From: Heptranchias perlo
Lineage: Eukaryota
NCBI RefSeq assembly: GCF_035084215.1
Contig: NC_090341.1
Span: forward strand, 28,334,001 to 28,398,000
Reading direction: 5' to 3'
DNA length: 64,000 bases
Position numbers and translations under genes: made by a program. Position 1 is the stretch's first letter; the number at the start of each line of letters is the position of its first letter. Positions 6,635 to 58,545 of this stretch are shown here, piece after piece. A model generated the notes under the pieces. It was not told the origin of the DNA. It was given only the letters and a program-made list of their open reading frames with translations, and searched no databases.

Positions 6635-8949
6635 TAGAATCATAGAATCATAGAAGTTTACAACATGGAAACAGGCCCTTCGGCCCAACATGTGCATGTT
6701 GCCCAGTTTATACCACTAAGCTAGTCCCAATTGCCTGCACTTGGCCCATATCCCTCTATACCCATCTTACCCATGTAACTGTCCAAATGCTTTTTAAAAG
6801 ACAAAATTGTACCCGCCTCTACTACTGCCTCTGGCAGCTCGTTCCAGAAACTCACCAACCTTTGAGTGAAAAAATTGCCCCTCTGGACCCTTTTGTATCT
6901 CTCCCCTCTCACCTTAAATCTATGCCTCCTCGTTATAGACTCCCCTACCTTTGGGAAAAGATTTTGACTATCGACCTTATCTATGCCCCTCATTATTTTA
7001 TAAACTTCTATAAGATCACCCCAAAACCTCCTACTCTCCAGGGAAAAAAGTCTCAGTCTATCCAACCTCTCCCTATAAGTCAAACCATCAAGTCCCGGTA
7101 GCATCCTAGTAAATCTTTTCTGCACTCTTTCTAGTTTAATAATATCCTTTCTATAATAGGGTGACCAGAACTGTACACAGTATTCCAAGTGTGGCCTTAC
7201 TAATGTCTTGTACAACTTCAACAAGACATCCCAACTCCTGTATTCAATGTTCTGACCAATGAAACCAAGCATGCCGAATGCCGCCTTCACCACCCTATCC
7301 ACCTGTGACTCCACTTTCAAGGAGCTATGAACCTGTACTCCAAGATCTCTTGGTTCTATAACTCTCCCCAACGCCCTACCATTAACAGAGTAGGTCCTGG
7401 CCCGATTTGATCTACCAAAATGCATCACCTCACATTTATCTAAATTAAACTCCATCTGCCATTCATCGGCCCACTGGCCCAATTTATCAAGATCCCGTTG
7501 CAATCCTAGATAACCTTCTTCACTGTCCACAATGCCACCAATCTTGGTGTCATCTGCAAACTTACTAACCATGCCTCTTAAATTCTCATCCAAATCATTA
7601 ATATAAATAACAAATAACAGCGGACCCAGCACCGATCCCTGAGGCACACCGCTGGTCACAGGCCTCCAGTTTGAAAAACAACCCTCTACAACCACCCTCT
7701 GTCTTCTGTCGTCAATCCAATTTTGTATCCAATTGGCTACCTCACCTTGTATCCCGTGAGATCTAACCTTATGTAACAACCTACCATGCGGTACCTTGTC
7801 AAAGGCTTTGCTAAAGTCCATGTAGACCACGTTTACTGCACAGCCCTCATCTGTCTTCTTGGTTACCCCTTCAAAAAACTCAATCAAATTTGTGAGACAT
7901 GATTTTCCTCTCACAAAACCATGCTGACTGTTCCTAACCAGTCCCTGCCTCTCCAAATGCCCGTAGATCCTGTTTCTCAGAATACCCTCTGTAGATGTCA
8001 GGCTCACCGGTCTGTAGTTCCCAGGCTTTTCCCTGCCTCCCTTCTTAAACAAAGGCACAACATTTGCTACCCTGGGCCAGACCTATCATTCTCCATAGCT
8101 ATCCTAAAACTAATGGAATTATGATCACTGGTCCCAAAGTGATCCCTCACTAACACTTCTGTCACCTGCCCTTCATTATTTCCCAAGAGGAGGTCAAGTT
8201 TTGCCCCCTCTCTAGTCGGGCCATCCACATACTGAATGAGAAATTCCTCCTGAATACACTCAACAAATTTCTCTCCATCCAAGCCCCTAATGCTATGGCT
8301 GTCCCAGTCAATGTTGGGAAAGTTAAAGTCCCCTACTATTACCACCCTATTTTTCTTGCAGCTGTCTGTAATCTCCTTACATATTTGCTCCTCAATTTCC
8401 CGTTGACTATTTGGGGGTCTGTAGTACAATCCTATCAACGTGATCTCTCCCTTCTTATTTTTCAGTTCTACCCATATAGACTCCGTGGGCGAACCCTCGG
8501 ATGTATCCTCTCTCACTACTGCCATGATGTTCTCCCTAATCAAGAACGCAACTCCCCCTCCTCTCTTACCTCCTGCTCTATCTTTCCTATAGCATCTGTA
8601 CCCTGGAATATTGAGCTGCCAGTCCTGCCCCTCCCTTAGCCATGTTTCAGTAATAGCTATAACATCCCAGTCCCATGTGCCCATCCATGCCCTGAGTTCA
8701 TCTGCCTTGCCCATCAGACTTCTTGCATTGAAATAAATGCAGTTTAATCTAGACTTCCCTTGGTGTTTGCCCTGCTTTCTCAGACCATCTGTCCGGTCAT
8801 GTTTTGTACACTCTCCCTTACTGCCTTTTGTTTCTGTCACCACTTTACTTCCCACTGACTTCCTGCATCGGTTCCCATCCCCCTGCCACTTTAGTTTAAA
8901 CCCTCCCCAACAGCACTAGCAAACACTCCCCCTAGGACATTGGTTCCAG
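6635..8949 (-). mobile_element. Young CR1 LINE with end of ORF1, APE endonuclease (8067-8855) and RT (6721-8058), internally deleted
   Basis: YFNARSL, ITETWL, GDFN, SDH endonuclease motifs; QHGF, DFSKAFD, GVPQGSVLGP, KFADD RT motifs; (ATTCTATG)n tail. The linker between APE and RT is missing. Confidence 0.95.
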
Positions 8950-9890: not shown

Positions 9891-10542
9891 GACAGGTTTT
9901 AAGCAGAGTCTTAAAGGAGAGGTGGAGGCGAAGAGGTTTAGGGAGGGAATTCCAGAGCTTAGGGCCTAAGCAGCTAAAGGCACAGCCGCCAATGGTGGGG
10001 GATGCACAAGAGGCTAGCGTAATAGGAACGTAGAGTTCTCGGAGGATTATCAGACTGGAGGTAGTTAGAGATAGGGAGGGGCGAGGCCATGGAGGGATTT
10101 GAACATGAGGATAAGAATTTTAAAATCGAGGCATTGGTGGACCAGGAGCCAATGTGGGTCAGTGAGCACAGGGGTGATTGGTGAATGGAACTTGGTGTGA
10201 GTTAGGATTTGGGCAGCAGAGTTTTGGATGAGCTCAGGTTTACGGAGGGTGGAAGATGGGAGACTGGCCTGGAGAGCATTGAAATAGTTGAGTCTGAAGG
10301 TAACAAAAAGCATGAATGAGGGTTTCAGCAGCAGATGGGCTGAAGTAGGGGCGGAGACGGGCAATATTATGGAGATGTAAGTGGTCAGTCTTTGTGATGG
10401 AGAGGATATGGGGTGAGCTCAGGATCAAATAGTTTGTTGAGGTTGTGAACAGTCTGGTTCAGCCTCAGATGGTGGCCAGGGAGGGGGATGGAATCGGTGG
10501 TTAGAGAACAGAGTTTATGGCGGCGGCCGAGGATAATGGTTT
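9891..10542 (-). mobile_element. L2 LINE 3' part
   Basis: ORF 10065-10364: LIQNSAAQILT...HSPITPVLTDPHWL...FKILILMFKSLHGLAPPYL. Confidence 0.88.
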
Positions 10543-11900
10543 CATGAATGCCTTCAAAGTGTACACTTCCTTGGATGATGCACTCACATCACTATGAATG
10601 TTAAGACCAACAGCTAAGTTAAGAAAAAGCCAAAAACACCAAGATACTTAATTTCATACTATCAAAAATTACCAATTGAGAATTGAAAATTGCCTTTGTC
10701 CTTGTATGAAGCCCTAGTTTCTGACTTCCGTACCCTTTTGCTTAATCTGATGCTCCTACAAGATAGTTCCCCTTTGGCTACAGCTTAGGAGGCGGAATGC
10801 TGCTGAACTTCCACTGATCCACTGAGGGCATTTGCGATGGCTGTGGTGGACAACCTGGACGAGCTCCAGCCATAGAGGGCCCGGCTGCAGACTGGAGCAT
10901 CTTGGCACCAGCCAGGGCAATCTGGCCCAGCTGGCTGACCAGAACAACAAGGGCACTGGCTGAGAGGCTGGCAGGGAGCAGGGTACTATCACCCTGAGAA
11001 AGGACAGCATGTGCCTCTTCCATGGTGGCACTACTACTCTCACAGGGCTGAGCCTCAGCACTCCCACCACCTGCAGGGCAACTGAATACAGGAATGATGT
11101 GACACTGTCAAAGCCCCTATCCATGATCTCTTTTATGCTTTGAAAGCCAGAGATGATGTGGTGTCTGAGAATCTGGGATCTCATGCTGCACCAACTATTT
11201 CTGCCATTTTCAACGTTCACAATTGAAGGTGTCTGCAGCTAAACTGCACCTTCCCTTTAAATGGCATCAGTAGCGCCCGATATGTGCCCCCCCTCCCCAA
11301 TTAGGTGAGCTGTCAATAAACAGTGCCACGTAGCCTGTTTTAATCAAATGAGGCACAAGCACCAGTATTGCTCATGCCTCGTGCCCACATGTTCAGATGC
11401 AAGGAGCGATTGCTCCACACATTACCCGGCCAATTACCGGCCTGAACGAATTTCTCCTCCTTCATTTTTGTTCAGAACTCTATTACAAATCATCATGTCC
11501 TTCCATAATTTTCACTGAGGTGATCTGTTTTTCCCCCACCAACTCTGTTGATATGACAAATTTTACAAAATTAATTGGAAGTGAAAGATGCATGAATTGT
11601 CAGATTTTTGCTGTCACACACCTCTGATTATACTGTACACTTAATTAGAGCACTAACATATATCCAACTGTGCAATGATCATTTTATTTTAAGCACATGC
11701 TCACTAATTAAACCTGCATAATTAACAGCATTCAGTAAAAAAGTCTATCATTGCACCTCCAAGATCAAAGAGGGCTGTCTGATATTGTAACTCGTAATCA
11801 CAATGACATATGTTCGGCTGAAAGCAACGTAGGCTGTTAGAGGATTAGGTAAATTACCATCATTAAACTGAGGTGATCTGATCAGCTCATAAAACACTAA

Positions 11901-12349: not shown

Positions 12350-13197
12350 CAACAAACAACAACAACAACTTGCATTTAAATTGCGCTTTTAACATATTAA
12401 AACGTCCAAAAGTGCTTCACAGGAGTTTTTTCAAACAAAATTTGACACCAAGCCACATAAGGAGATATTCGGACAGGTGACCAAAAACTTGGTCAAAGAG
12501 GTAGGTTTTAAGGAGCGCATTAAAGGAGGAGAGAGAGTTAGAGAGGTGGAGAGGTTTAGGGAGGGAATTCCAGAGCTTAGGGCCTAGGCAGCTGAAGGTG
12601 GAACGATGAAAATCGGGGACGTGCAAGAGGCAAGAATTGGAGGAGCGCAGAGATCTCGGAGGGTTATAGGGCTGGAGGAGGTTACAGAGATAGGGAGGGG
12701 CAAGGACATGGAGGGATTTGAAAACAAGGATAAGAATTTTAAAATAGAGGTGTTCCCAGACCGGGAGCCCATGTAGGTCAGCGAGAACAGGGGTAATGGG
12801 TGACCGGGATTTGGTGCTAGTTATGATACGGGCAGCAGAGTTTTGGATGAGCTCAAGTTTATGGTAGGTAGAAGATGGAAGACCAGCCAGGAGAGCATTG
12901 GAATAGTCGAGTCTAGAGGTAACAAAGGCATGGATGAGGGTTTCAGCAGCAGATGAGCTGAGGCAGGGGCAGGCGATGTTACGGTGGTGGAAGTAGGCAG
13001 TCTTGGTGATGGAGTGGATATGTGGTCGGAAGCTCATCTCAGGGTCAAATAGGATGTTAAGGTTGTGAGCGGTCTGGTTCAGCCTCAGACAGTGGCCAGG
13101 GAGAGGGATGGAGTCGGTGGCTAGGGAACGGAGTTTGTGGCGGGGACCAAGGACAATAGCTTCGGTCTTCCCAATATTTAGTTGGAGGAAATTTCCG
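12350..13197 (-). mobile_element. L2 LINE 3' part with (TTG)n tail
   Basis: ORF 12417-13211 NFLQLNIGKTE...AFVTSRLDYSNALL...LWNSLP; (caa)n at ~12350-12369. Confidence 0.92.
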
Positions 13198-13351
13198 TAT
13201 TTTAACTCCAACCTTGAAAGAGCGTCATCTTACAACAGAATGATTTTTCCCATTTCGACATCTTCATGAGGACTCTGAGTGAAATTTTTCGTTTCATGCC
13301 AATACAACAGCCATGCCCCTTTCCTCATCCAGTTTTATAATTTTGAAGGGG

Positions 13352-13606
13352 TCAACCTTGGTTCAGTTGTAGCAATCTCATCTGAGTCAGAAATTCGTGG
13401 GTTCAAGCCCCACTCCAGAGACTTGAATAATCTCGGCTGACACTTCAGTGCAGTTCTGAGGGAGTGCTGCACTGTCGGAGATGCCATCATTCAGAGGACT
13501 GGTTAAACGGAGGCCCCATCTGCCCTCACAGGGGGACGCAAAAGATCCCATGGTGCTATTTGAAGAGCAGGGTATTTCGCTGTGTCCTGGCCAACATTTA
13601 TCCTTT
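13352..13606 (+). mobile_element. tRNA-derived Deu-type SINE (SacSINE1-like), 5' part; continues at 16541-16562 and 17869-17968
   Basis: tRNA boxes (tggttcagttg / gggttcaagccc) and Deu-like core (taaacggaggcccc...aaaagatcccatgg). The 3' part caaattggctgcc...gtgactacatttcaaaag resumes after two insertions. Confidence 0.7.
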
Positions 13607-16537
13607 ACTTTTTTCTTTATTCGTTCATGGGATGTGGGCGTCGCTGGCAAGGCCAGCATTTATTGCCCATCCCTAATTGCCCTCGAGAAAGTGGTGGTGA
13701 GCCGCCTTCTTGAGCTGCGACAGTCCGTGTGGTGAAGGTCCTCCCACAGTGCTGTTAGGAAGGGAGTCTCCAGGATTTTAACCCAGCGGCGACGAAGGAA
13801 TGGCGATATATTTCCAAGTCAGGATGGTGTGAGACTTGGAGGGGAACATGCAGGTGGTGTTGTTCCCACGTGCCTGCTGCCCTTGTCCTTCTAGGTGGTA
13901 AAGGTCGCAGGTTTGGGAGGTGCTGTCGAAGAAGCCTTGGTGAGTTGCTGCAGTGCTGTCGATCATACACACTGCAGCCATGGTGCGCTGGTAGTGCAGG
14001 GAGTGAATGTTTAGGGTGGTGGATGGGGTGCCAATCAAGCGGGCTGCTTTGTCCTGGATGGTGTCGAGTTTCTTGAGTGTTGATGCAGCTGCACTCATCC
14101 AGGCAAGTGGAGAGTATTCCATCACACTCCTGACTTGTGCCTTATAGATGGTGGAAAGGTTTTGGGGACACTGCGCAATCATCAGCAAACATCCCCATTT
14201 CTGACCTTATGATGGAGGGAAGGTCATTGATGAAGCAGTTGAAGAAGGGTGGGCCTCAGAGGAACTGAGGAACTACTGCAGCAATGTCGTGGGGCTGAGA
14301 CAATTGGCCTCAAACAACCACTACCATCTTCCTTTGTGCTAGGTATGACTCCAGCCACTGGAGAGTTTTCCCTCTGATTCCCATTGACTTCAATTTTACT
14401 CGGGCTCCTTGGTGCCACACTCGGTCAAATGATGCCTAGATGTCAAGGGCAATCACTCTCACCTCACCTCTGGAATTCAGCTCCTTTGCCCAGGTTTGGA
14501 CCAAGGCTGTAATGAGGTCTGAAGCCGGGTGATCCTGGCGGAACCCAAACTGAGCATCGGTGAGCAGGTTATTGGTGAGTAAATGCCGCTTGATAGCACT
14601 GTCGATGACTCCTTCCATCACTTTGCTGATGATTGAGAGTAGACTGATGAGGCAGTAACTGGCGGGATTGGATTTGTCCTGCTTTTTGAGGACAGGACAT
14701 ACCTGGGCAACTTTCCACATTGTCGGGTAGATGCCAGTGTTGTAGCTGTACTGGAACAATTTGGCTAGAGGCACGGCTAGTTCTGGAGCACAAGTCTTCA
14801 GCACTACAGCCGGGATGTTGTCGGGGCCCACAGCCTTTGTGTACAGTGCACTCAGCCGTTTCTTGATATCACGTGGAGTGAATCGAATTGGCTGAAGACT
14901 GGCTTCTGTGATGGTGGGGATATTGGGAGGAGGCCGAGATGGATCATCCATTCGGCGCTTCTGGCTGAAGATGGCTGCAAATGCTTCAGCCTTGTCTTTT
15001 GCACTCACGTGCTGGACACCGCCATCATTGAGGATGGGGATGTTCACTGAGCCTCCTCCTCCTGTTAGTTGTTCAATTGTCCATCACCATTCACGACTGG
15101 ATGTGGCAGGACTGCAGAACTTTGATCTGATCCATTGGTTGAGGAATCGCTTCGCTCTGTCCAAAGCATGTTGCTTCCGCTGTTTAGCATGCATGTAGTC
15201 CTGTGTTGGAGCTTCACCAGGTTGACACCTTATTTTTTTTAGGTATGCCTGGTGCTGCTCCTGGCATGCTCTTTTACACTCCTCATTGAACCAGGGTTGA
15301 TCCCCTGGTTTGTTGGTAATGGTAGTGTGAGGAATATGCCGGGCCATGAAGTTACAGATTGTGCTGGAATACAATTCTGCTGCTGCTGATGGACCACAGC
15401 GCCTCATGGATGCCCAGTTTTGAGCTGCTAGATCTGTTCTGAATCTATCCCTTTAAGCACGGTGGTAGTGCCACACAACACGTTACATGGTGTCCTCAGT
15501 GTGAAGACAGGACTTTGTCTCCACAAGGACTGTGCAGTGATCACTCCTACCAATACTGTCATGGACAGATGCATCTGTGACAGGTAGACTGGTGAGGACG
15601 AGGTCAAGTAGGTTTTTCCCTAGTGTTGGTTCGCTCACCACCTGCTGCAGGCCCAGTCTGGCAGCTATGTCTTTCAGAACTTGACCAGCTTGGTCAGTAG
15701 TGGTGCTACCGAGCCACTCTTGGTGATGGACATTGAAGTCCCCTACCCAGAATACATTCGGTACCCTTGCTACCCTCAGTGCTTCCTCCAAGTGGTGCTC
15801 AACATGGAGGAGGACTGATTCATCAGCTGAGGGAGGGTGGTAGGTGGTAATCAGCAGGAGGTTTCCTTGCCCATGTTTGACCTGATGCCATGAGAATTCA
15901 TGGGGTCCGGAGTCAATGTTGAGGACCCCCAGGGCCACTCCCTCCTGACTGTATATCACTGTACCGCCACCTCTGGTGGGTCTGTCCTGCCGCTGGGACA
16001 GGTCATACCCAGGGATGGTGATGGAACAATCTGGACGTTGGTTGAAAGGTATGATTCCGTGAGTATGGCTATGTCAGGCTGTTGCTTGACTAGTCTGTGG
16101 GACAGCTCTCCCAATTTTGGCACAAGTCCCCAGATATTAGTGAGGAGGACCTTGCAGGGTCGACTGGGCTTGGTTTACATTTGTCGTGTCCGGTGCCAGG
16201 TGGTCCAATCGGTTTTATTCTTATTATGAGAGATTGTACAACCGAGTGGCTTGCTCGGCCATTTCAGAGGGCGATTAAGAATCAACCACATTGCTGTGGG
16301 TCAGGAGTCACATATAGGCCAGACCGGGTAAGGACGGCAGGTTTCCTTCCCTAAAGGACATTAGTGAACCAGATGGGTTTTTACGACAATCCGGATTTTT
16401 TTAATTCCAGATTTTTAAAAATTTAATTTATTGTATTTAAATTGCTGCCGTAGCAGGATTTGAACTCATGACTCCAGATTATTAGTCCAGGCCTCTGGAT
16501 TACTAGTCCAGTCACATAACCACTATGCTACCGTACC
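13607..16537 (-). mobile_element. Near-full-length family B LINE (CR1/L2 group): tRNA-like head plus APE-RT ORF, no ORF1; frameshifted
   Basis: Head at 16537-16450 with A and B boxes. APE begins ~16160 (LLTNIWGL, ILTESYL, GDFNVHH, SDH). RT: YCLISLLSIISKVMEG, QFGFR, ALDI. 3' tail at ~13607-13630; internal deletion near 14170. Confidence 0.9.
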
Positions 16538-20679: not shown

Positions 20680-20947
20680 GAACCTGAGCTGCATAACTAG
20701 GAAGGTTCCAAATTACATTCCTGGTCTGTGCTCAGACAGCTGATCCCTGTCAGGGTAATTGGGATAAACAAAATCAGCCGTGATTCTGTCATATCCAGTA
20801 GCCCATGCTGAAAGGTAGGGGAGGGGGGGCTGGATACTACTGCACTGAAATGTCAGCCTAGATTTTATCTTCAAGTCCTGGAGTAGAGCTTGAACCCACA
20901 ACCTTCTGCCTCAGAAGTGAAAGTGCTGCCACTGAGCCAAAGCTGAA
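20680..20947. mobile_element. Two abutting SINE fragments: old tRNA SINE (+, ~20680-20820) and Deu-type SINE head (-, ~20835-20947)
   Basis: ctggtctgtgctcagacagctgatc matches the SINE at 61610. The minus strand reads tggctcagtggcagc...gggttcaagctctactccag. Confidence 0.55.
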
Positions 20948-21124
20948 ACCCCTGAAATCCTGGGGTTACATTGTGGGGCAGAGGTCTGGTGCAACGGGTT
21001 ATCGTCCCCATTTCCTCTTTGCTGTGTTTGGGAACTGAGTGTTCTCCAGGCATATTAAGCAGAAAACCTGCCCTATGTAGCTGCACTGGAATGGGAAGAA
21101 AAGAGCAGTGAGACTGATTCCCAG

Positions 21125-22177: not shown

Positions 22178-22790
22178 GGAAGGACGCCGCGCGGGAGTGG
22201 GGGGGGGGGGGGGGGGGGGGAGGCGGGAGGGACGCCGCGTGGGAGTGGGCGGGGTGGGAAGGACGCCGCGCGGGAGTGGGCGGGGTGGGAAGGACGCCGC
22301 GCGGGAGTGGGCGGGGTGGGAAGGACGCCGCGCGGGAGTGGGCGGGGTGGGAAGGACGTCGCGCGGGAGTGGGCGGGGTGGGAAGGACGTCGCGCGGGAG
22401 TGGGCGGGGTGGGAAGGACGTCGCGCGGGAGTGGGCGGGGTGGGAAGGACGTCGCGCGGGAGTGGGCGGGGTGGGAAGGACGTCGCGCGGGAGTGGGCGG
22501 GGTGGGAAGGACGTCGCGCGGGAGTGGGCGGGGTGGGAAGGACGTCGCGCGGGAGTGGGCGGGGTGGGAAGGACGTCGCGCGGGAGTGGGCGGGGTGGGA
22601 AGGACGTCGCGCGGGAGTGGGCGGGGTGGGAAGGACGTCGCGCGGGAGTGGGCGGGGTGGGAAGGACGTCGCGCGGGAGTGGGCGGGGTGGGAAGGACGT
22701 CGCGCGGGAGTGGGCGGGGTGGGAAGGACGTCGCGTGGGAGTGGGCGGGGTGGGAAGGACGTCGCGCGGGAGTGGGAAGGACGTCGCGGG
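22178..22790 (+). repeat. 31-bp GC-rich minisatellite (gggaaggacgtcgcgcgggagtgggcggggt), about 17 full units plus degenerate ends and a poly-G tract
   Basis: Directly visible tandem array. It explains the stop-free repetitive ORFs in several frames. Confidence 0.97.
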
Positions 22791-32711: not shown

Positions 32712-35700
32712 ATTTGGCCATAATCTTCCAATCCTCCTTAGATATGGGGGTGGTGCCAGAGGACTGGAGAATTGCAAACGTTACACCCTTGCTCAAAAAA
32801 GGGCGAAAGGATATACACGGCAACCACAGGCCAGTCAGTTTAACCTCGGTGGTGGGGAAGCTTTTAAAAACGATAATCCGGGACAAAATGAATAGTCACT
32901 TGGACAAGTGTGGAATAATAAAAGGAAGGCCAGCATGGATTTGTTGAAGTCAAATCATGTTTAACTAACTTGATTGAGTTTTTTTGATGAGGTAACAGAA
33001 AGGGTTGATGAGGGCAGTGCGGTTGATGTGGTGTATATGGACTTTCAAAAGGCATTTGAAAGAGTGCCACATAATAGGCTTGTCAGCAAAACTGAAGCCC
33101 ATGGAACAAAAGGGGCAGTGGTGGTATGGATGCAAAATTGGCTAAGCGACAGAAAACAGTGTAGTGGTGAACGATTGTTTTTCAGACTGGAGGAAGGAAC
33201 ACAGTGGAGTTCCCCAGGGGTCGGTACTAAGACCACTGCCATTTTTGTTATATATCAATGACTTGGACTTGGGTGTACGGGGCACAATTTCAAAATCTGC
33301 AGATGACACAAAACTTGGAAGTGTAGTAAACAGTGAGGAGGATAGTAATAGACTTCAAGAGGACATAGACAGGCTTTTTTAAAAAATTGATTCATGGGAT
33401 GTGGGCATCACTAGCAAGGCCAGCGTTTATTGCCCATCCCTATTTACCCTTGAGAAGGTAGTGGTGAGCTGCCTTCTTGAACCACTGCAGTCTGTATGGC
33501 GAAGGTACTCACACAGTACTGTTAGGTCGGGAGTTCCAGGATTTTGACCTAGCGACAATGAAGGAACGGCGATACATTTCCAAGTCAGCATGATATGTGA
33601 CTTGGAGGGGAACATGCAGGTGGTGGTGTTCCCATACGCCTGCTGCCTTTGTCCTTCTAGGCGGTAGGGTTTGGGAGGTGCTATCAAAGAAGCCTTGGCG
33701 AGTTGCAGTAGTGCATCCTGTGGATGGTACACATTACAGCCACGGTGTGTCGGTGGTGGAGGGAGTGAATGTTTAAGGTGGTGGATGGGGTGCCAATCAA
33801 GCGGGCTGTTTTGTCCTGGATGGTGTTGAGCTTCTTGAGTGTTGTTGGAACTGCACTCATCCAGGCAAGTGGGGAATATTCCATCACACTCCTGAATTGT
33901 GCCTTGTAGATGGAGGAAAGGTTTTGGGGAGTCAGGAGGTGAGTCACTCGCAGCAGAATACCCAGCCTCTGACCTGCTCCTGTGGCCACTGTTTTTATGT
34001 GGCTGGTCCAGTTAAGTTTCTGGTCAATGGTGACCCCCATGATGTTGATGGTGGGGGATTCGGTGATGGTAAGGGATTCGGTGATGGTAATGCCGTTGAA
34101 TGTCAAGGGGAGGTTGTTAGACTCTCTCTTGTTGGAGATGATCATTGCCTGGCACTTGTCTGGTGCGAATGTTACTTGCCACTTACCAGTTACCAGCCCA
34201 AGCCTGAATGTTATCCAGGTCTTGCTGCATGCGGGCACGGACTGCTTCATTATTTGAGTGGTTGCGAATGGAGCTGAACACTGTGCAATCATCAGCAAAC
34301 ATCTCCACTTCTGACTTTATGATGGAGGGAAGGTTATTGATGAAGCAGTTGAAGATGGTTGGGTCTAAGACACTGCCTTGAGGAACTCCCACAGCGATAT
34401 CCTGGGGCTGAGATGATTGGCCTCCAACAACCATTACCATCTTCCTTTGTGCTGGGTATGACTCTAGCCAATGGAGAGTTTTCCCCAATTCCCATTGACT
34501 TCAATGTTACTAGGGCTCCTTGATGCCACACTCTGTCAAAGGCTGCCTTGATGTCAAGGGTCGCCACTCTCACCTCACCTCTGGAATTCAGCTCTTTTGT
34601 CCATGTTTGGACCAAGGCTGTTATGAGATCTGGAGCCGAGTGGTCCTGGCGGAACCCAAACTGAGCATCGGTGAGCAGGTTATTGGTGGGTACGTGCCGC
34701 TTGATAGCATTGTCAACAACACCTTCCATCGCTTTGCTGATGATTGTGAGTAGGCTGATGGGGCCGTAATTGGCCAGATTGGATTTGTCCCACTTTTTGT
34801 GGACAGGACATACCTGGGCATTTTTCCACTTTGTCGGGTAGATGCCAGTGTTGTAGCTGTACTGGAACAGCTTGGCTAGAGGCACGGCTAGTTCTGGAGC
34901 TAGTTCTGTATTCTTCAGCATCACAGCCGGGATGTTGTTGAGGCCTTTAGCCTTTGCTGTATCCAGTGTACTCAGCTGTTTCTTGATATCACGTGGAGTG
35001 AATTGAATTGGCTGAAGACTGGCTTCTGTGATGGTGGGGATCTGGGGAAGAGGCCGAGATGGACCATACACACGGCACTTCTGGCTGAAGATGGTTGCAA
35101 ACACTTCAGCCTTGTCTTTTGCACTCACGTGCTGGACTCCGCCATCATTGAGGATGGGGATGTTCATGGAGCCTCCTCCTCCTGTTAGTTCTTTAATTGT
35201 CCACCACCATTCACGACTGGATGTGGCAGGACTGCAGAGCTTTGATCTGATCCATTGGTCTATAGCATGCAGCTTCCGCTGTTTAGCATGCATGTAAGTC
35301 CTGTGTTGTAGCTTCACCAGGTTGGCACCTCATTTTTAGGTACGCCTGGTGCTGCTCCTGGCATGCTCTTCTACACTCATTAAACCAGGGTTGATCCCCT
35401 GGCTTGTTGGTAATGGTAGAGTGAGGGATATGCCAAGCCACGAGGTTACAGATTGTGGTGGAATACAATTCTGCTGCTACTGATGGCCCACAGCGCGTCA
35501 TGGATGCCCAGTTTTGAGCTGCTAGATCTGTTCTGAATCTATCCCATTTAGCATGGTGATAGTGCCACAACATGATGGATGGTGTCCTCAGTGTGAAGAC
35601 TGGACTTCATCTCCATGAGGGCTGTGCGGTGGTCACTCCTACCAATACGGTCATGGACAGATGCATCTGCGACAGGTAGATTGGCGAGGATAAGATCAAC

Positions 35701-36875
35701 TAGGCTTTTCCCTCATCTTGGTTCTTTCACCACCTGCCGCAGACCCAGTCTGGCAGCTATGTCCTTCAGGACTCGGCCAGCTCGGTCAGTAGTGGTACTA
35801 CCGAGCCACTCTTGGTGATGGACATTGATGTCCCCCACCCAGAGTACATTCTGTGCCCTTGCTACCCTCAGTGCCTCCAAGTGGTGCTCAACATGGAGCA
35901 GTACTGATTCATCAGCTGAGGGAGGGTTCCTTGCCCATGTTTGACCTGTGCCATGAGAATTCATGGGGTCCAGAGTCAATTCAGAAGCCTAGACTAATAA
36001 TCCAGAGACATGAGTTAAAATTCTGCAACTACAGCTGGGGAATTTAAATTTAGTTAATTGAATAAAATCTGGAGTAAAAGTGATACATTTTGGCAGGAAG
36101 AATGAGGAGAGGGAATATAAACTAAATGGTTTAATTCTGAAGGGTTCAGGAAGAGAGAGATCTGGGGGTACATGTGCACAAATCTTTGAAGGTGGCAGGA
36201 CAGGTTGAGAAAGCGGTTAAAAAAGCACACAGGGTCCTGGGCTTTATAAATAGAGGCATAGAGTACAAAAGCAAGGAAGTTACGTTGAATCTTTATAAAA
36301 CTCTAGCTCGGCCACAACTGGAGTATTGTGTCCAAATCTGGGCACCACACTTTAAGAAGGATCTGAAGGTCTTAGAGAGGGTGCAGAAAAGATTTACCAG
36401 AATGGTTCCTGGGATGAGGGACTTCAGTGATGTGGATAGACTGGAGAAGCTGAGGTTGCTCTCCTTAGAGCAGAGATGGTTAAGAGGAGATTTGATAGAA
36501 GTGTTCAAAATCATGAAGGGTTTAGATAAAGTAAATAAAGAGAAACTGTTCCCATTGGCGGAAGGGTCGAGAACCAGAGGACATTTATTTAAGGTAAATG
36601 GCAAAAGAATCAAAGATGACATGAGGGGAAACTTTTTTTTAACACAGCGAGTAGTTATGATCTGAAATTTGCTGCCTGAAAGGGTGGTGGAAGCAGATTC
36701 AATCATGGCTTTCAAAAAGGAATTGGACAAATTCTTGAAGGGAAAAAATTTGCAGGGCTACAGGGAAAGAGTGAGAGAATGGGACTAACTGGATCGCTCT
36801 CACAAAGAGCCGGCACAGGTTCAATTGGCCAAATGGCATCCTTCTGTGCTGTAATGATTCTATGATTCTATTCTA
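32712..36875 (+). mobile_element. CR1 LINE RT region (32712-33375 and 36078-36875) split by a family B LINE
   Basis: VPEDWRIANVTPL, DFQKAF, GVPQGSVL, ADDTKL, then HKSLKVAGQVEKAV, EYCVQIWAPHF; tail attctatgattcta. Confidence 0.9.
33376..36075 (-). mobile_element. Second long family B LINE copy, with an inverted piece of the tRNA-like head at ~35981-36072
   Basis: ORFs 34334-35317, 34183-34488 and 33684-34298 give the RT (DIKAAFDRVWH, GVPQGSVL, FADDC); APE remnant 35580-35977. Head sequence cctagactaataatccagagacatgagttaaaattc lies on +. Confidence 0.9.
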
Positions 36876-54459: not shown

Positions 54460-56905
54460 ATTGGACCTAAAAAAGATAGATCAGAGTACTTACTAAATGG
54501 TGTCAAGCTTGAAATAGTGGAGGTCCAAAAAGACTTAGGGGTCCATGTACACAGATCATTAAAATATCATGGACAGGTACTAAAAATGATCAAAAAGGCT
54601 AAATGTGATGCTGGCCTTTATATCTGGAGGACTAGAATATAAGAGAGTAGAAGTTATGCTACAGCTATACAAAACCCTGGTTAGACCACACCGAGAGTAC
54701 TGTGTTCAGTTCTGGGCACTGCACCTTAGGATGAATATATTGGCCTCGAAGGGAGAGCAGCGTAGATTTACTGGAATGATATCTGGACTCCGAGGATTAA
54801 ATTATGAGGAGGGATTACACAAACTAGGGTTGTATTCCCTGGAATTTAGAAGATTAAGGGGTGATTTTATCTAAGTTTTCAAGATACTAAGAGAAACTGA
54901 CAGGGTAGATAGAGAAAAACTATTTCCACTGGTTGGGGAGTCTAGGATTAGGGGCCTTGGGGATGTTAGGGAACTTGGGGAAATAAATAGTGATGTCTTG
55001 AGGAGTGTACTTATTACAGAGAGAGAGGTGCTGGAAGTCTTAACGCGCATCAAGGTAGATAAATCTCCAGGACCTGATGAAATGTATCCCAGGACGTTAT
55101 GGGAGGTTAGGGAGGAAATTGCGGGTCCCCTAGCAGAGATATTTCAATCATCGACAGCTACAGGTGAGGTGCCTGAAGATTGGAGGGTAGCAAATGTTGT
55201 GCCTTTGTTTAAGAAGGGAGGCAGGGAAAAGCCTGGGAACTACAGACCGGTGAGCCTGACATCTACAGAGGGTATTCTGAGAAACAGGATCTACGGGCAT
55301 TTGGAGAGGCAGGGACTGGTTAGGAACAGTCAGCATGGTTTTGTGAGAGGAAAATCATGTCTCACAAATTTGATTGAGTTTTTTGAAGGGGTAACCAAGA
55401 AGATAGATGAGGGCTGTGCAGTAGACGTGGTCTACATGGACTTTAGCAAAGCCTTTGACAAGGTACCGCATGGTAGGTTGTTACATAAGGTTAAATCTCA
55501 CGGGATCCAAGGTGAGGTAGCCAATTGGATACAAAATTGGATTGACGGCAGAAGACAGAGGGTGGTTGTAGAGGGTTGTTTTTCAAACTGGAGGCCTGTG
55601 ACCAGCGGTGTGCCTCAGGGATCGGTGCTGGGTCCGCTGTTATTTGTTATTTATATTAATGATTTGGATGAGAATTTAGGAGGCATGGTTAGTAAGTTTG
55701 CAGATGACACCAAGATTGGTGGCATTGTGGACAGTGAAGAAGGTTATCTAGGATTGCAACGGGATCTTGATAAATTGGGCCAGTGGGCCGATGAATGGCA
55801 GATGGAGTTTAATTTAGATAAATGTGAGGTGATGCATTTTGGTAGATCGAATCGGGCCAGGACCTACTCCGTTAATGGTAGGGCGTTGGGGAGAGTTATA
55901 GAACAAAGAGATCTAGGAGTACAGGTTCATAGCTCCTTGAAAGTGGAGTCACAGGTGGATAGGGTGGTGAAGGCGGCATTCAGCATGCTTGGTTTCATTG
56001 GTCAGAACATTGAATACAGGAGTTGGGATGTCTTGTTGAAGTTGTACAAGACATTAATAAGGCCACACTTGGAATACTGTGTACAGTTCTGGTCACCCTA
56101 TTATAGAAAGGATATTATTAAACTAGAAAGAGTGCAGAAAAGATTTACTAGGATGCTACCGGGACTTGATGGTTTGACTTATAGGGAGAGGTTGGATAGG
56201 CTGAGACTTTTTTCCCTGGAGAGTAGGAGATTTTGGGGTGATCTTAAACAAGTCTATAAAGTAATGAGGGGCATAGATAAGGTAGATAGTCAAAATCTTT
56301 TCCCAAAGGTAGGGGAGTCTATAACGAGGGGGCATAGATTTAAGGTGAGGGGGGAAGAGATACAAAAGGGTCCAGAGGGGCAATTTTTTCACTCAAAGGG
56401 TGGTGAGTGTCTGGAACAAGCTGCCAGAGGCAGTAGTAGAGGCGGGTACAATTTTGTCTTTTAAAAAGCATTTGGACAGTTACATGGGTAAGATGGGTAT
56501 AGAGGGATATGGGCCAAGTGCAGGCAATTGGGACTAGCTTAGTGGTATAAACTGGGCGACATGGACATGTTGGGCCGAAGGGCCTGTTTCCATGTTATAA
56601 ACTTCTATGATTCTATGATTCTATAGCCTAAAAATTAGAGACAGGACTTTCAGGAGTGAAGTTGGGAAACACTCCTAAACGCAAAGGGTGGTAGAAGTTT
56701 GAAACTCTCTTCCATAAACGGCAGTTGATGCTGGCTCAATTGTTAATTTTAAATCTGAGACTGATAATACCTTTTGGTTAACAAAAATCTAAGGGATATG
56801 GGGCTAAGGCGGGAATATGGAGTTAGGTCACAAATCAGCCATGATCTCACTGAATGACTTTATACATCGAGGGGCTAAATGGCCTACTCCTGTTCCTATG
56901 TTCCA
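54460..56905 (+). mobile_element. Older CR1 3' part (54460-54956 and 56624-56905) split by a young CR1
   Basis: LYKTLVRPHREYCVQFW...gagtctaggattaggggc | insert | agcctaaaaattagag...cctatgttcc. Confidence 0.85.
54957..56623 (+). mobile_element. Young 5'-truncated CR1 LINE (RT ORF 54998-56464), same subfamily as 6635-8949
   Basis: Almost identical RT protein; (ATTCTATG)n tail; one late frameshift near 56355. Confidence 0.95.
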
Positions 56906-58299: not shown

Positions 58300-58545
58300 T
58301 GTGCGGAGACAATGACCATGAACGCTGCTGGACTATCATAAAACCCAACTGGTTCACTGATGTCTTTTAATAGATGGGAACCTGCCACTGCTACCCAGTC
58401 TGGCCTGGACATGATTCGTCCCAGGCTACTTGGTTGACTCTTAATGCTCTTTGAAGTGACCGAGCAAGCCACTCGGCCACCGTTATTTAGGTCAACTAGG
58501 AATGAGCGACCTTGTCAGTATTGCCCACATCCAGAAAAGAAATTA
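58300..58545 (+). mobile_element. SINE body and tail sharing both the 5' UTR and the 3' end of the family B LINE
   Basis: aaaacccaactggttcactgatgtc...gaccgagcaagccactcgg matches the reverse complement of ~16240-16385. It is followed directly by caactaggaatgagc..ttgcccacatcc. Confidence 0.65.

Follow-up and report, generated by a model that had tools for sequence, protein, structure and literature searches.

LINEs are by standard coding elements of RNA polymerase II (Pol II), and SINEs are non-coding elements of Pol III. The element at 13607 to 16537 of the window, by which we mean the whole 64,000-nucleotide stretch of Heptranchias perlo DNA analyzed here, raised the question of whether the two can be joined in one unit. 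The first-pass annotation had read it as a LINE with a tRNA-derived head and no ORF1. We therefore asked whether the junction belongs to this locus or to a family, and how an element built in this way could be transcribed and translated. In the parts of PMC10886601 that bear on this point, non-LTR elements are described as Pol II transcribed, and Pol III as limiting length, which speaks against a Pol III-transcribed LINE.

Layout of the window copy and origin of its head

The window holds two LINE copies of the family and one companion SINE, and their features are as follows.

13607-16537, minus strand: dead LINE copy of Zenon type, 2931 bp, 91% identity to the unbroken copy L078
16444-16537, minus strand: tRNA-Thr(AGT)-derived head, anticodon arm present twice (16511-16495 and 16490-16474)
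16530-16520, minus strand: A-box, TAGCATAGTGG
16465-16456, minus strand: B-box, GTTCAAATCC
16393-16443, minus strand: A/T-rich linker with T5 at 16421-16417, shorter than that of sister copies by about 40 nt
16230-16392, minus strand: conserved 5′ UTR core of 163 nt, beginning with GGATTG and reaching the ORF junction, a candidate IRES
16247-16261, minus strand: hairpin TGGC-[CNAGCAA]-GCCA, with a 7-nt anticodon-like loop (AGC)
13673-16229, minus strand: single ORF, comprising a basic N-terminal extension, APE endonuclease and RT
about 16150-15520, minus strand: APE endonuclease within the ORF
from about 14680, minus strand: RT within the ORF
13607-13672, minus strand: short 3′ UTR and A-tail, common to the companion SINE
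33391-36079, minus strand: second family copy, LINE part at 33391-35980, 5′-broken at q644 (q, query position), after which other repeats interrupt
58340-58540, plus strand: old companion SINE copy, 5′-truncated, UTR core joined to the 3′ tail

The A- and B-boxes were found where they had been claimed, in a copy whose 5′ end is GGTACGG at 16537 on the minus strand. Some 400 bp into the element comes the endonuclease motif TNIWG, Pfam Exo_endo_phos_2 matched at 15483-16073 (E 3e-13) and RVT_1 follows, so that the proposed order of head, endonuclease and RT also held; no ORF1 fits in between, and none is present anywhere in the family. The ORF of this copy carries stops and frameshifts and has lost 322 bp of RT at 14168, and about 11 nt are missing at its start. 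GCT, the putative partner of the AGC loop, is deleted here and present in 68/99 LINE copies, and the T5 at 16421-16417 is absent from most copies. The full family length is 3.2 to 3.3 kb.

To place the head, tRNA-Thr(AGT) genes of the genome were located by pattern search and ARAGORN. The window head aligned to one of these genes with a local score of 34, a value reached by 0/500 shuffles (15±3), and a SINE head with one arm scored 38. The Rfam tRNA score of the head was 23.2 bits, under the cut-off of 29; ARAGORN and Rfam probably miss or under-score the LINE head because its anticodon arm is doubled. Judged by these alignments, the head is derived from tRNA-Thr(AGT). A single arm is found in older SINEs and in the old LINE copy L239, and the source of the first head may have been either a SINE or a tRNA. 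As in SINE2 elements, the LINE begins with a tRNA-derived head bearing A and B boxes; it is not short and non-coding as they are, being 3.3 kb long with an ORF under purifying selection, and only the companion derivative is. Separately, L166 (G000:C31:22406748-22409794) holds a pair of tRNA-Thr(AGT) genes 490 bp apart.

Other repeats share the window. A tRNA-headed SINE, presumably SacSINE1-like (DeuSINE), abuts the 3′ end of the element at 13350-13600 (plus strand), with a second copy near 20839-20953. Fragments of another LINE, which we take to be L2-like, lie at 12417-13229 (minus strand) and 9894-10543; they hold a 270-codon open frame and served as a T-run control. Two CR1 pieces (6635-8073 and 55184-56623), which lie 47 kb apart and point in opposite directions, share 98% identity, and the young CR1 family has frames of up to 910 codons elsewhere in the genome (L190). 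A G-rich minisatellite occupies 22225-22776 (31-bp unit, 17.8 copies, 99% matches).

The junction across the family and its Zenon identity

When the 3.25-Gb host genome was searched with a head-plus-endonuclease query, 5365 candidates were obtained, of which 40 were scored and 30 fetched. All 29 other loci fetched aligned from q1-13 through the start of the endonuclease, with an identical junction and 26 distinct flanks. Since this query selects for the junction, unselected queries were also run. The UTR-only query yielded 19/29 loci that are LINEs running into the endonuclease and 10/29 that are head-plus-tail SINEs. With the RT query, 6/19 loci included head or UTR and 4/5 extended loci began at q1; with a diverged endonuclease query, head or UTR was reached in 17/29. 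No common alternative 5′ end emerged from the RT and endonuclease queries, whose copies either extend into the head or end at varied places short of it. In a set of 32 copies broken at q≥300, no rival 5′ UTR or ORF1 was found, and pairwise comparison gave no shared foreign sequence at the break, bar one 43-bp match that we read as the old subfamily's own N-terminal extension.

The same head-UTR-ORF join occurs in an older subfamily of this genome, 78 to 83% identical to L063. The position of the 5′ boundary is also the same, beside unrelated flanks, in contigs of four further organisms (31 to 59 records each); pieces bridging UTR and endonuclease are listed in run X1 only, of those four runs. 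A separate "old-family" query mostly returned the same family. Full copies of 3.2 to 3.3 kb are held by 18/20 fetched stretches (L071 and L073 are duplicates), and 18/20 reach the 3′ end, closing in an A-run. Target-site duplications are not established: matches of 5 to 18 nt were seen in 7/18, mostly short or in repeats. A G stands directly before the head in 26/31 LINE copies and could be a copied cap, although it is found in 6/7 SINE copies as well.

Could the window copy be a local accident, a truncated LINE that landed beside an independent SINE? A SINE with the same head is indeed abundant, making up 10/29 of the head-query loci. The remaining 19/29 run into the endonuclease, however, and the junction is identical across loci, subfamilies and species; this explanation is refuted, and we give it practically no weight. 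That the head is the fixed 5′ end of an element without ORF1, family-wide, is virtually certain.

Side observations concern rearranged copies. An inverted head piece (35978-36079, plus strand) abuts the second window copy and looks like a 5′ inversion, a product for which twin-priming is a known mechanism. In the old copy L239 (G000:C9:63524910-63528027), an inverted stretch of its own head, about 130 nt long, lies between UTR and ORF. L074, L056 and L212 are inserted into same-family copies, and nesting is apparently frequent.

Catalogue status, which the first-pass annotation had left open, is settled for the family itself: it was catalogued in 2026 as LINE/Zenon (Stuart et al. 2026, PMC13343379), and the head is the part that the text of that paper leaves undescribed. 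Zenon is reported there to lack ORF1 in general and to carry a poly-A tail; our family likewise lacks ORF1, encodes APE endonuclease and RT in one ORF, and ends in a poly-A tail. Published Zenon rows were compared by eye over their first 400 characters. Seven elasmobranch rows of five species in Supplementary Table 2 (CarCar, HypSab, RhiTyp and ScyCan Zenon-1, and SquAca Zenon-1 to -3) begin with the head and UTR, and SquAca_Zenon-1 is about the same sequence as the family over the 400 characters. Sharing the same head and UTR motifs, a length of 2.9 to 3.3 kb, an A-tail and the lack of ORF1, these rows are the same family. The UTR motif occurs six times in the supplement, every time in a Zenon row, and the tRNA head is absent from the hagfish and coelacanth rows within their first 400 characters. 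As far as the main text of PMC13343379 is concerned, tRNA, promoter and polymerase III go without mention, and the sections considered carry no remark on the missing AUG. The combination of SINE head and ORF2, suspected from one copy, is thus borne out for the whole family, the older subfamily and the rows of five other elasmobranchs; the observation is real, in a known clade with a 5′ architecture so far undescribed. The absence of ORF1 stands as well, but it is not unusual as had been supposed: because PMC13343379 reports it generally, ORF1 loss is ordinary for the Zenon clade.

Canonical vertebrate CR1 elements have ORF1 before ORF2, whereas the ORF here begins 330 to 350 nt from the 5′ end. 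In a 45-row RT tree, which includes no labelled Zenon and in which the CR1 row is a long branch, the family belonged to a clade of 35 rows (98/96), with the genome's CR1 outside it. RT active-site motif FADD, not YADD, is found in the unbroken copies L061 and L063. The head as a clade-wide trait was rejected: by pattern, no A/B pair was found upstream among 80 metagenome relatives (26 to 41% identity), many of whose contigs hold little upstream DNA, and the Rfam tRNA search found none in the 6 closest relatives with upstream DNA. Most full-length metagenome relatives have an early Met and many T-runs, the latter being confounded by host A+T content. Because distant relatives go without it, the head looks like a gain of the elasmobranch lineage. 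Viral contigs gave no match to the UTR motif, to the single protein or by alignment.

The companion SINE consists of the head and UTR joined to the last 70 to 130 nt of the LINE at several different junctions, and the SINE copy L046 carries diagnostic bases of the young LINE. At least some SINEs have therefore arisen by repeated internal deletion.

Probable initiation without AUG and the case for Pol III

Three of the 18 full copies keep one open frame of 967 to 969 codons, which begins after a TAA; their first Met comes only after the endonuclease, at codons 245, 271 and 245. The claim that the window copy has no initiator ATG thus extends to the family, the older subfamily and the published consensus rows of five other elasmobranchs, but the ATG-TAA near 16180 that had been offered with it is private to this copy (1/30 rows) and irrelevant to initiation. 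An upstream in-frame ATG in strong context is present in 79/99 LINE copies; it is open to GCT in 7/99 and stop-closed in 68/99 (10/99 with gaps), and the old subfamily has GTG at the site. In addition, the sense strand of the L063 UTR (155-260) has an ATG-started frame of about 34 codons in young copies, the first ATGs of which are missing in the old subfamily.

Over 18 copies, with CpG sites left out, dN/dS was 0.13 for changes common to at least 3 copies versus 0.71 for private ones. For codons 1 to 244 in the 15 TAA copies, shared changes were 0 nonsynonymous and 7 synonymous versus 78 and 21 private (Fisher 5e-5). On this pattern of substitution, the Met-less part is under purifying selection, which argues that the masters made endonuclease without an AUG. 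The old-copy majority has no Met in codons 1 to 244 either, and where indels of the N-terminal extension recur in several copies, their length is mostly a multiple of three. A distant relative, P0004, starts MATKK where the family reads (x)ATKS, although the M may be a GTG or TTG of the caller. From the substitution data, non-AUG initiation of the ORF is very probable. A vertebrate LINE with an endonuclease made without AUG and without ORF1 was not described in the literature searched.

The UTR core precedes this start. Six sites within it distinguish the old from the young majority, and by a column measure the core is not more conserved than the ORF (92% versus 92 to 94%). Its folding energy was not better than that of shuffles (z +0.6 to -1.1), and RNAalifold on decayed copies gave almost no structure. 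One compensatory pair is seen in helix (T/A)CTGG:CCAG(A/T), T-A in 87 and A-T in 24 of 135 copies, as one event; in X6 and X10 (2/4 runs), where the contigs are unphased, its depth-weighted shares did not covary (about 55% on one side, 8% on the other). Covariation at AATCG:CGGTT was rejected as CpG decay plus query bias (TC/G 11, TC/A 11, TT/G 12). No triple pseudoknot could be fitted, the helix list giving one compensated helix, and no Rfam IRES family matched to E 10. A Deu domain comparison with one decayed neighbour SINE, its identity presumed, scored 23 (P=0.22), which is not significant.

Just before the ORF, the hairpin TGGC-CTAGCAA-GCCA appears in both the MFE and the centroid structure. 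By the usual tRNA pattern, its 7-nt loop resembles an anticodon loop with AGC; an in-frame GCT complementary to it follows after a sequence-variable spacer of 7 to 8 nt. The 4-bp TAGC:GCTA is retained in old and young majorities, and both loop and GCTA are present in 6/7 published Zenon rows (PMC13343379). The second loop base varies (CTAGCAA 52, CGAGCAA 22). No compensatory change for the loop:GCT pairing was found: copies with GCG (9) and GCC (4) are uncompensated in the loop, which fits a decoded Ala equally well. An IRES acting by anticodon mimicry is therefore a tentative suggestion from these motifs, and we would not expect it to hold.

As for transcription, T≥4 is absent from 14/18 full copies, and its density is 0.10 per kb in the family versus 6.4 per kb in the window. 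Within the ORF, T≥4 runs numbered 0 versus about 2 expected (P~0.08 to 0.11, codon-aware nulls), T≥3 runs 5 to 7 versus 12 to 16 (P≤0.02, two synonymous-codon nulls) and 4-T-in-5 windows 2 versus 10 (P 0.017). A, C and G runs were at expectation, so the depletion is limited to T, and the old-copy majority has 0 T4 over 2252 columns. CR1 controls from the same genome, with frames of 853 to 910 codons, contain 8 to 11 T≥4 runs including T5-T6 and show no T3 depletion, which is absent from the L2 fragment control too; two of the three CR1 controls were below T4 expectation under one null (P 0.017, 0.049). Heads and linkers of old copies are less clean. T≥4 follows the head in 11/29 old-head loci (mode T3; in a few cases the stretch examined ran past the head or was in the wrong orientation), and runs of T4-T7 are present in some old heads. 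With a stricter match, T≥4 was found in 1/39 young and 1/2 old LINE heads. T5 stands in the linker of the old LINE copies L273 and L278 and of the window copy; in the linker of a master, it would stop Pol III. Linker T-runs in old copies are probably due to post-insertion slippage at a T/A boundary. Overall, run statistics and promoter boxes are indirect signs that make Pol III somewhat more likely than not as the polymerase of the element.

We favor, with modest confidence, a Pol III transcript translated cap-independently from the conserved GCT-ACN junction. An autonomous single-ORF Zenon LINE would have acquired a tRNA-Thr-derived head in an elasmobranch ancestor, and through its internal A/B boxes it would draw in TFIIIC and Pol III. 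Meeting no terminator, the polymerase would read 3.3 kb, and each insertion would regenerate the promoter. Translation of the uncapped RNA would start without AUG from the structured UTR core of 163 nt, at the conserved GCT or just past it; ribosome placement is the least certain step, with anticodon-loop/GCT pairing as one candidate. Binding in cis to the 3′ tail, the protein would carry out target-primed reverse transcription, and it would mobilize the SINE-like derivatives in trans. In its most specific form, a factor-independent nuclear-encoded IRES with a tRNA-Ala-like loop (CUAGCAA):GCU on an uncapped 3.3-kb Pol III RNA, kept in sharks and rays and spawning SINEs, the proposal is speculative, and we think it rather improbable.

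The main competitor, doubtful in our judgment yet to be taken seriously, is a Pol II RNA, from a promoter in the head or UTR or from host read-through, on which ribosomes re-initiate independently of AUG after a short frame such as ATG-GCC-TAG; L1 ORF2 re-initiation is a known parallel. The head would then serve the SINEs or be a relic. The strong-context ATG of 79/99 copies, with an in-frame stop next in most, is what such re-initiation needs, and the G before the head, the T-runs in some old linkers and the AATAAA plus A-tail at the 3′ end agree with Pol II, as does the weakness of the T4 statistics taken alone. But the old subfamily has GTG at the ATG site, and a T-specific run depletion across the ORF, missing from the CR1 and L2 controls, is not predicted by Pol II transcription. 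The A/B boxes retained in the rows of five other species and the insertions that begin precisely at the tRNA +1 region also count against it.

Two further schemes would supply an AUG by other routes. In one, ribosomes would start on an overlapping UTR frame (ATG TGG..., about 68 codons) and shift by -1 in the A-rich patch ahead of the endonuclease to reach the main ORF. L061 (209-508) and L077 (222-524) do contain overlapping frames of 100 codons, counted from stop to stop, and the junction is A-rich, both of which would suit this, but many old copies have ACG for ATG, no canonical slippery heptamer was seen by eye, and in one published row, where consensus errors are possible, the spacer before GCT is of other length; we consider it very unlikely. 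Slightly less credible still is that the true masters are only the open-ATG minority, including the lineage of the window copy, and copied the stop-bearing majority in trans. An ATG open to GCT does exist in 7/99 copies and in 6/36 of another set. Purifying selection among TAA-only copies, TAA in all three unbroken frames and a youngest supported clade that is all TAA have, however, largely refuted this scheme already.

Meaning and comparison with known systems

The family combines LINE and SINE features across at least 6 elasmobranch genomes. If Pol III drives the element, as we favor, it would represent a natural 3.3-kb coding Pol III transcript, which would explain the need for an IRES. The searched literature, largely open-access and with Repbase and Dfam outside its scope, gave no description of a Pol III-driven coding LINE or of this head. 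At 163 nt, the UTR core would fit into a reporter for AUG-independent initiation, and it could bear on the origin of factorless IRESs, which is called unknown in PMC12221177.

In type 6 (dicistrovirus intergenic) IRESs, a pseudoknot mimics the anticodon:codon pair, and GCU mostly serves as first codon, with ACA in its place in subtype 6f (PMC10275262, PMC12221177). The UTR core resembles these, as described in the cited parts, in its putative non-AUG start with GCU or ACA beside an anticodon-like hairpin, in the size of the structured region (about 160 to 190 nt) and in the variable spacer. It differs in that L1.1 motifs and three pseudoknots were not identified, Rfam matches none, and the loop is complementary to nothing but GCTA itself, and not to the preceding triplet; the likeness was drawn post hoc.

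A tRNA-like piece inside a LINE is not unprecedented, since RTE-1_DAn and elements related to it are said to hold one (Kojima 2018, PMC5786205). RTE-1_DAn belongs to the RTE clade, and in the covered text of PMC5786205 the position of its tRNA-like sequence, promoter use and translation are undescribed. Lepidopteran Zenon and the internally deleted Persaeus likewise show a Zenon spinning off a short element from its 5′ and 3′ ends (PMC6740152); Persaeus, however, is reported there to lack both tRNA homology and a Pol III promoter, whereas the derivative here is a tRNA-headed SINE in form. CoeSINE4, SINE2_Gav and Bov-tA also join a tRNA head to a LINE 5′ UTR and a LINE 3′ tail (PMC5786205). According to that account, their head was added to a non-coding deletion derivative, while here the full coding LINE carries the head. 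With the coding LINE already headed, SINEs can arise by deletion alone, which provides a direct route from LINE to SINE.
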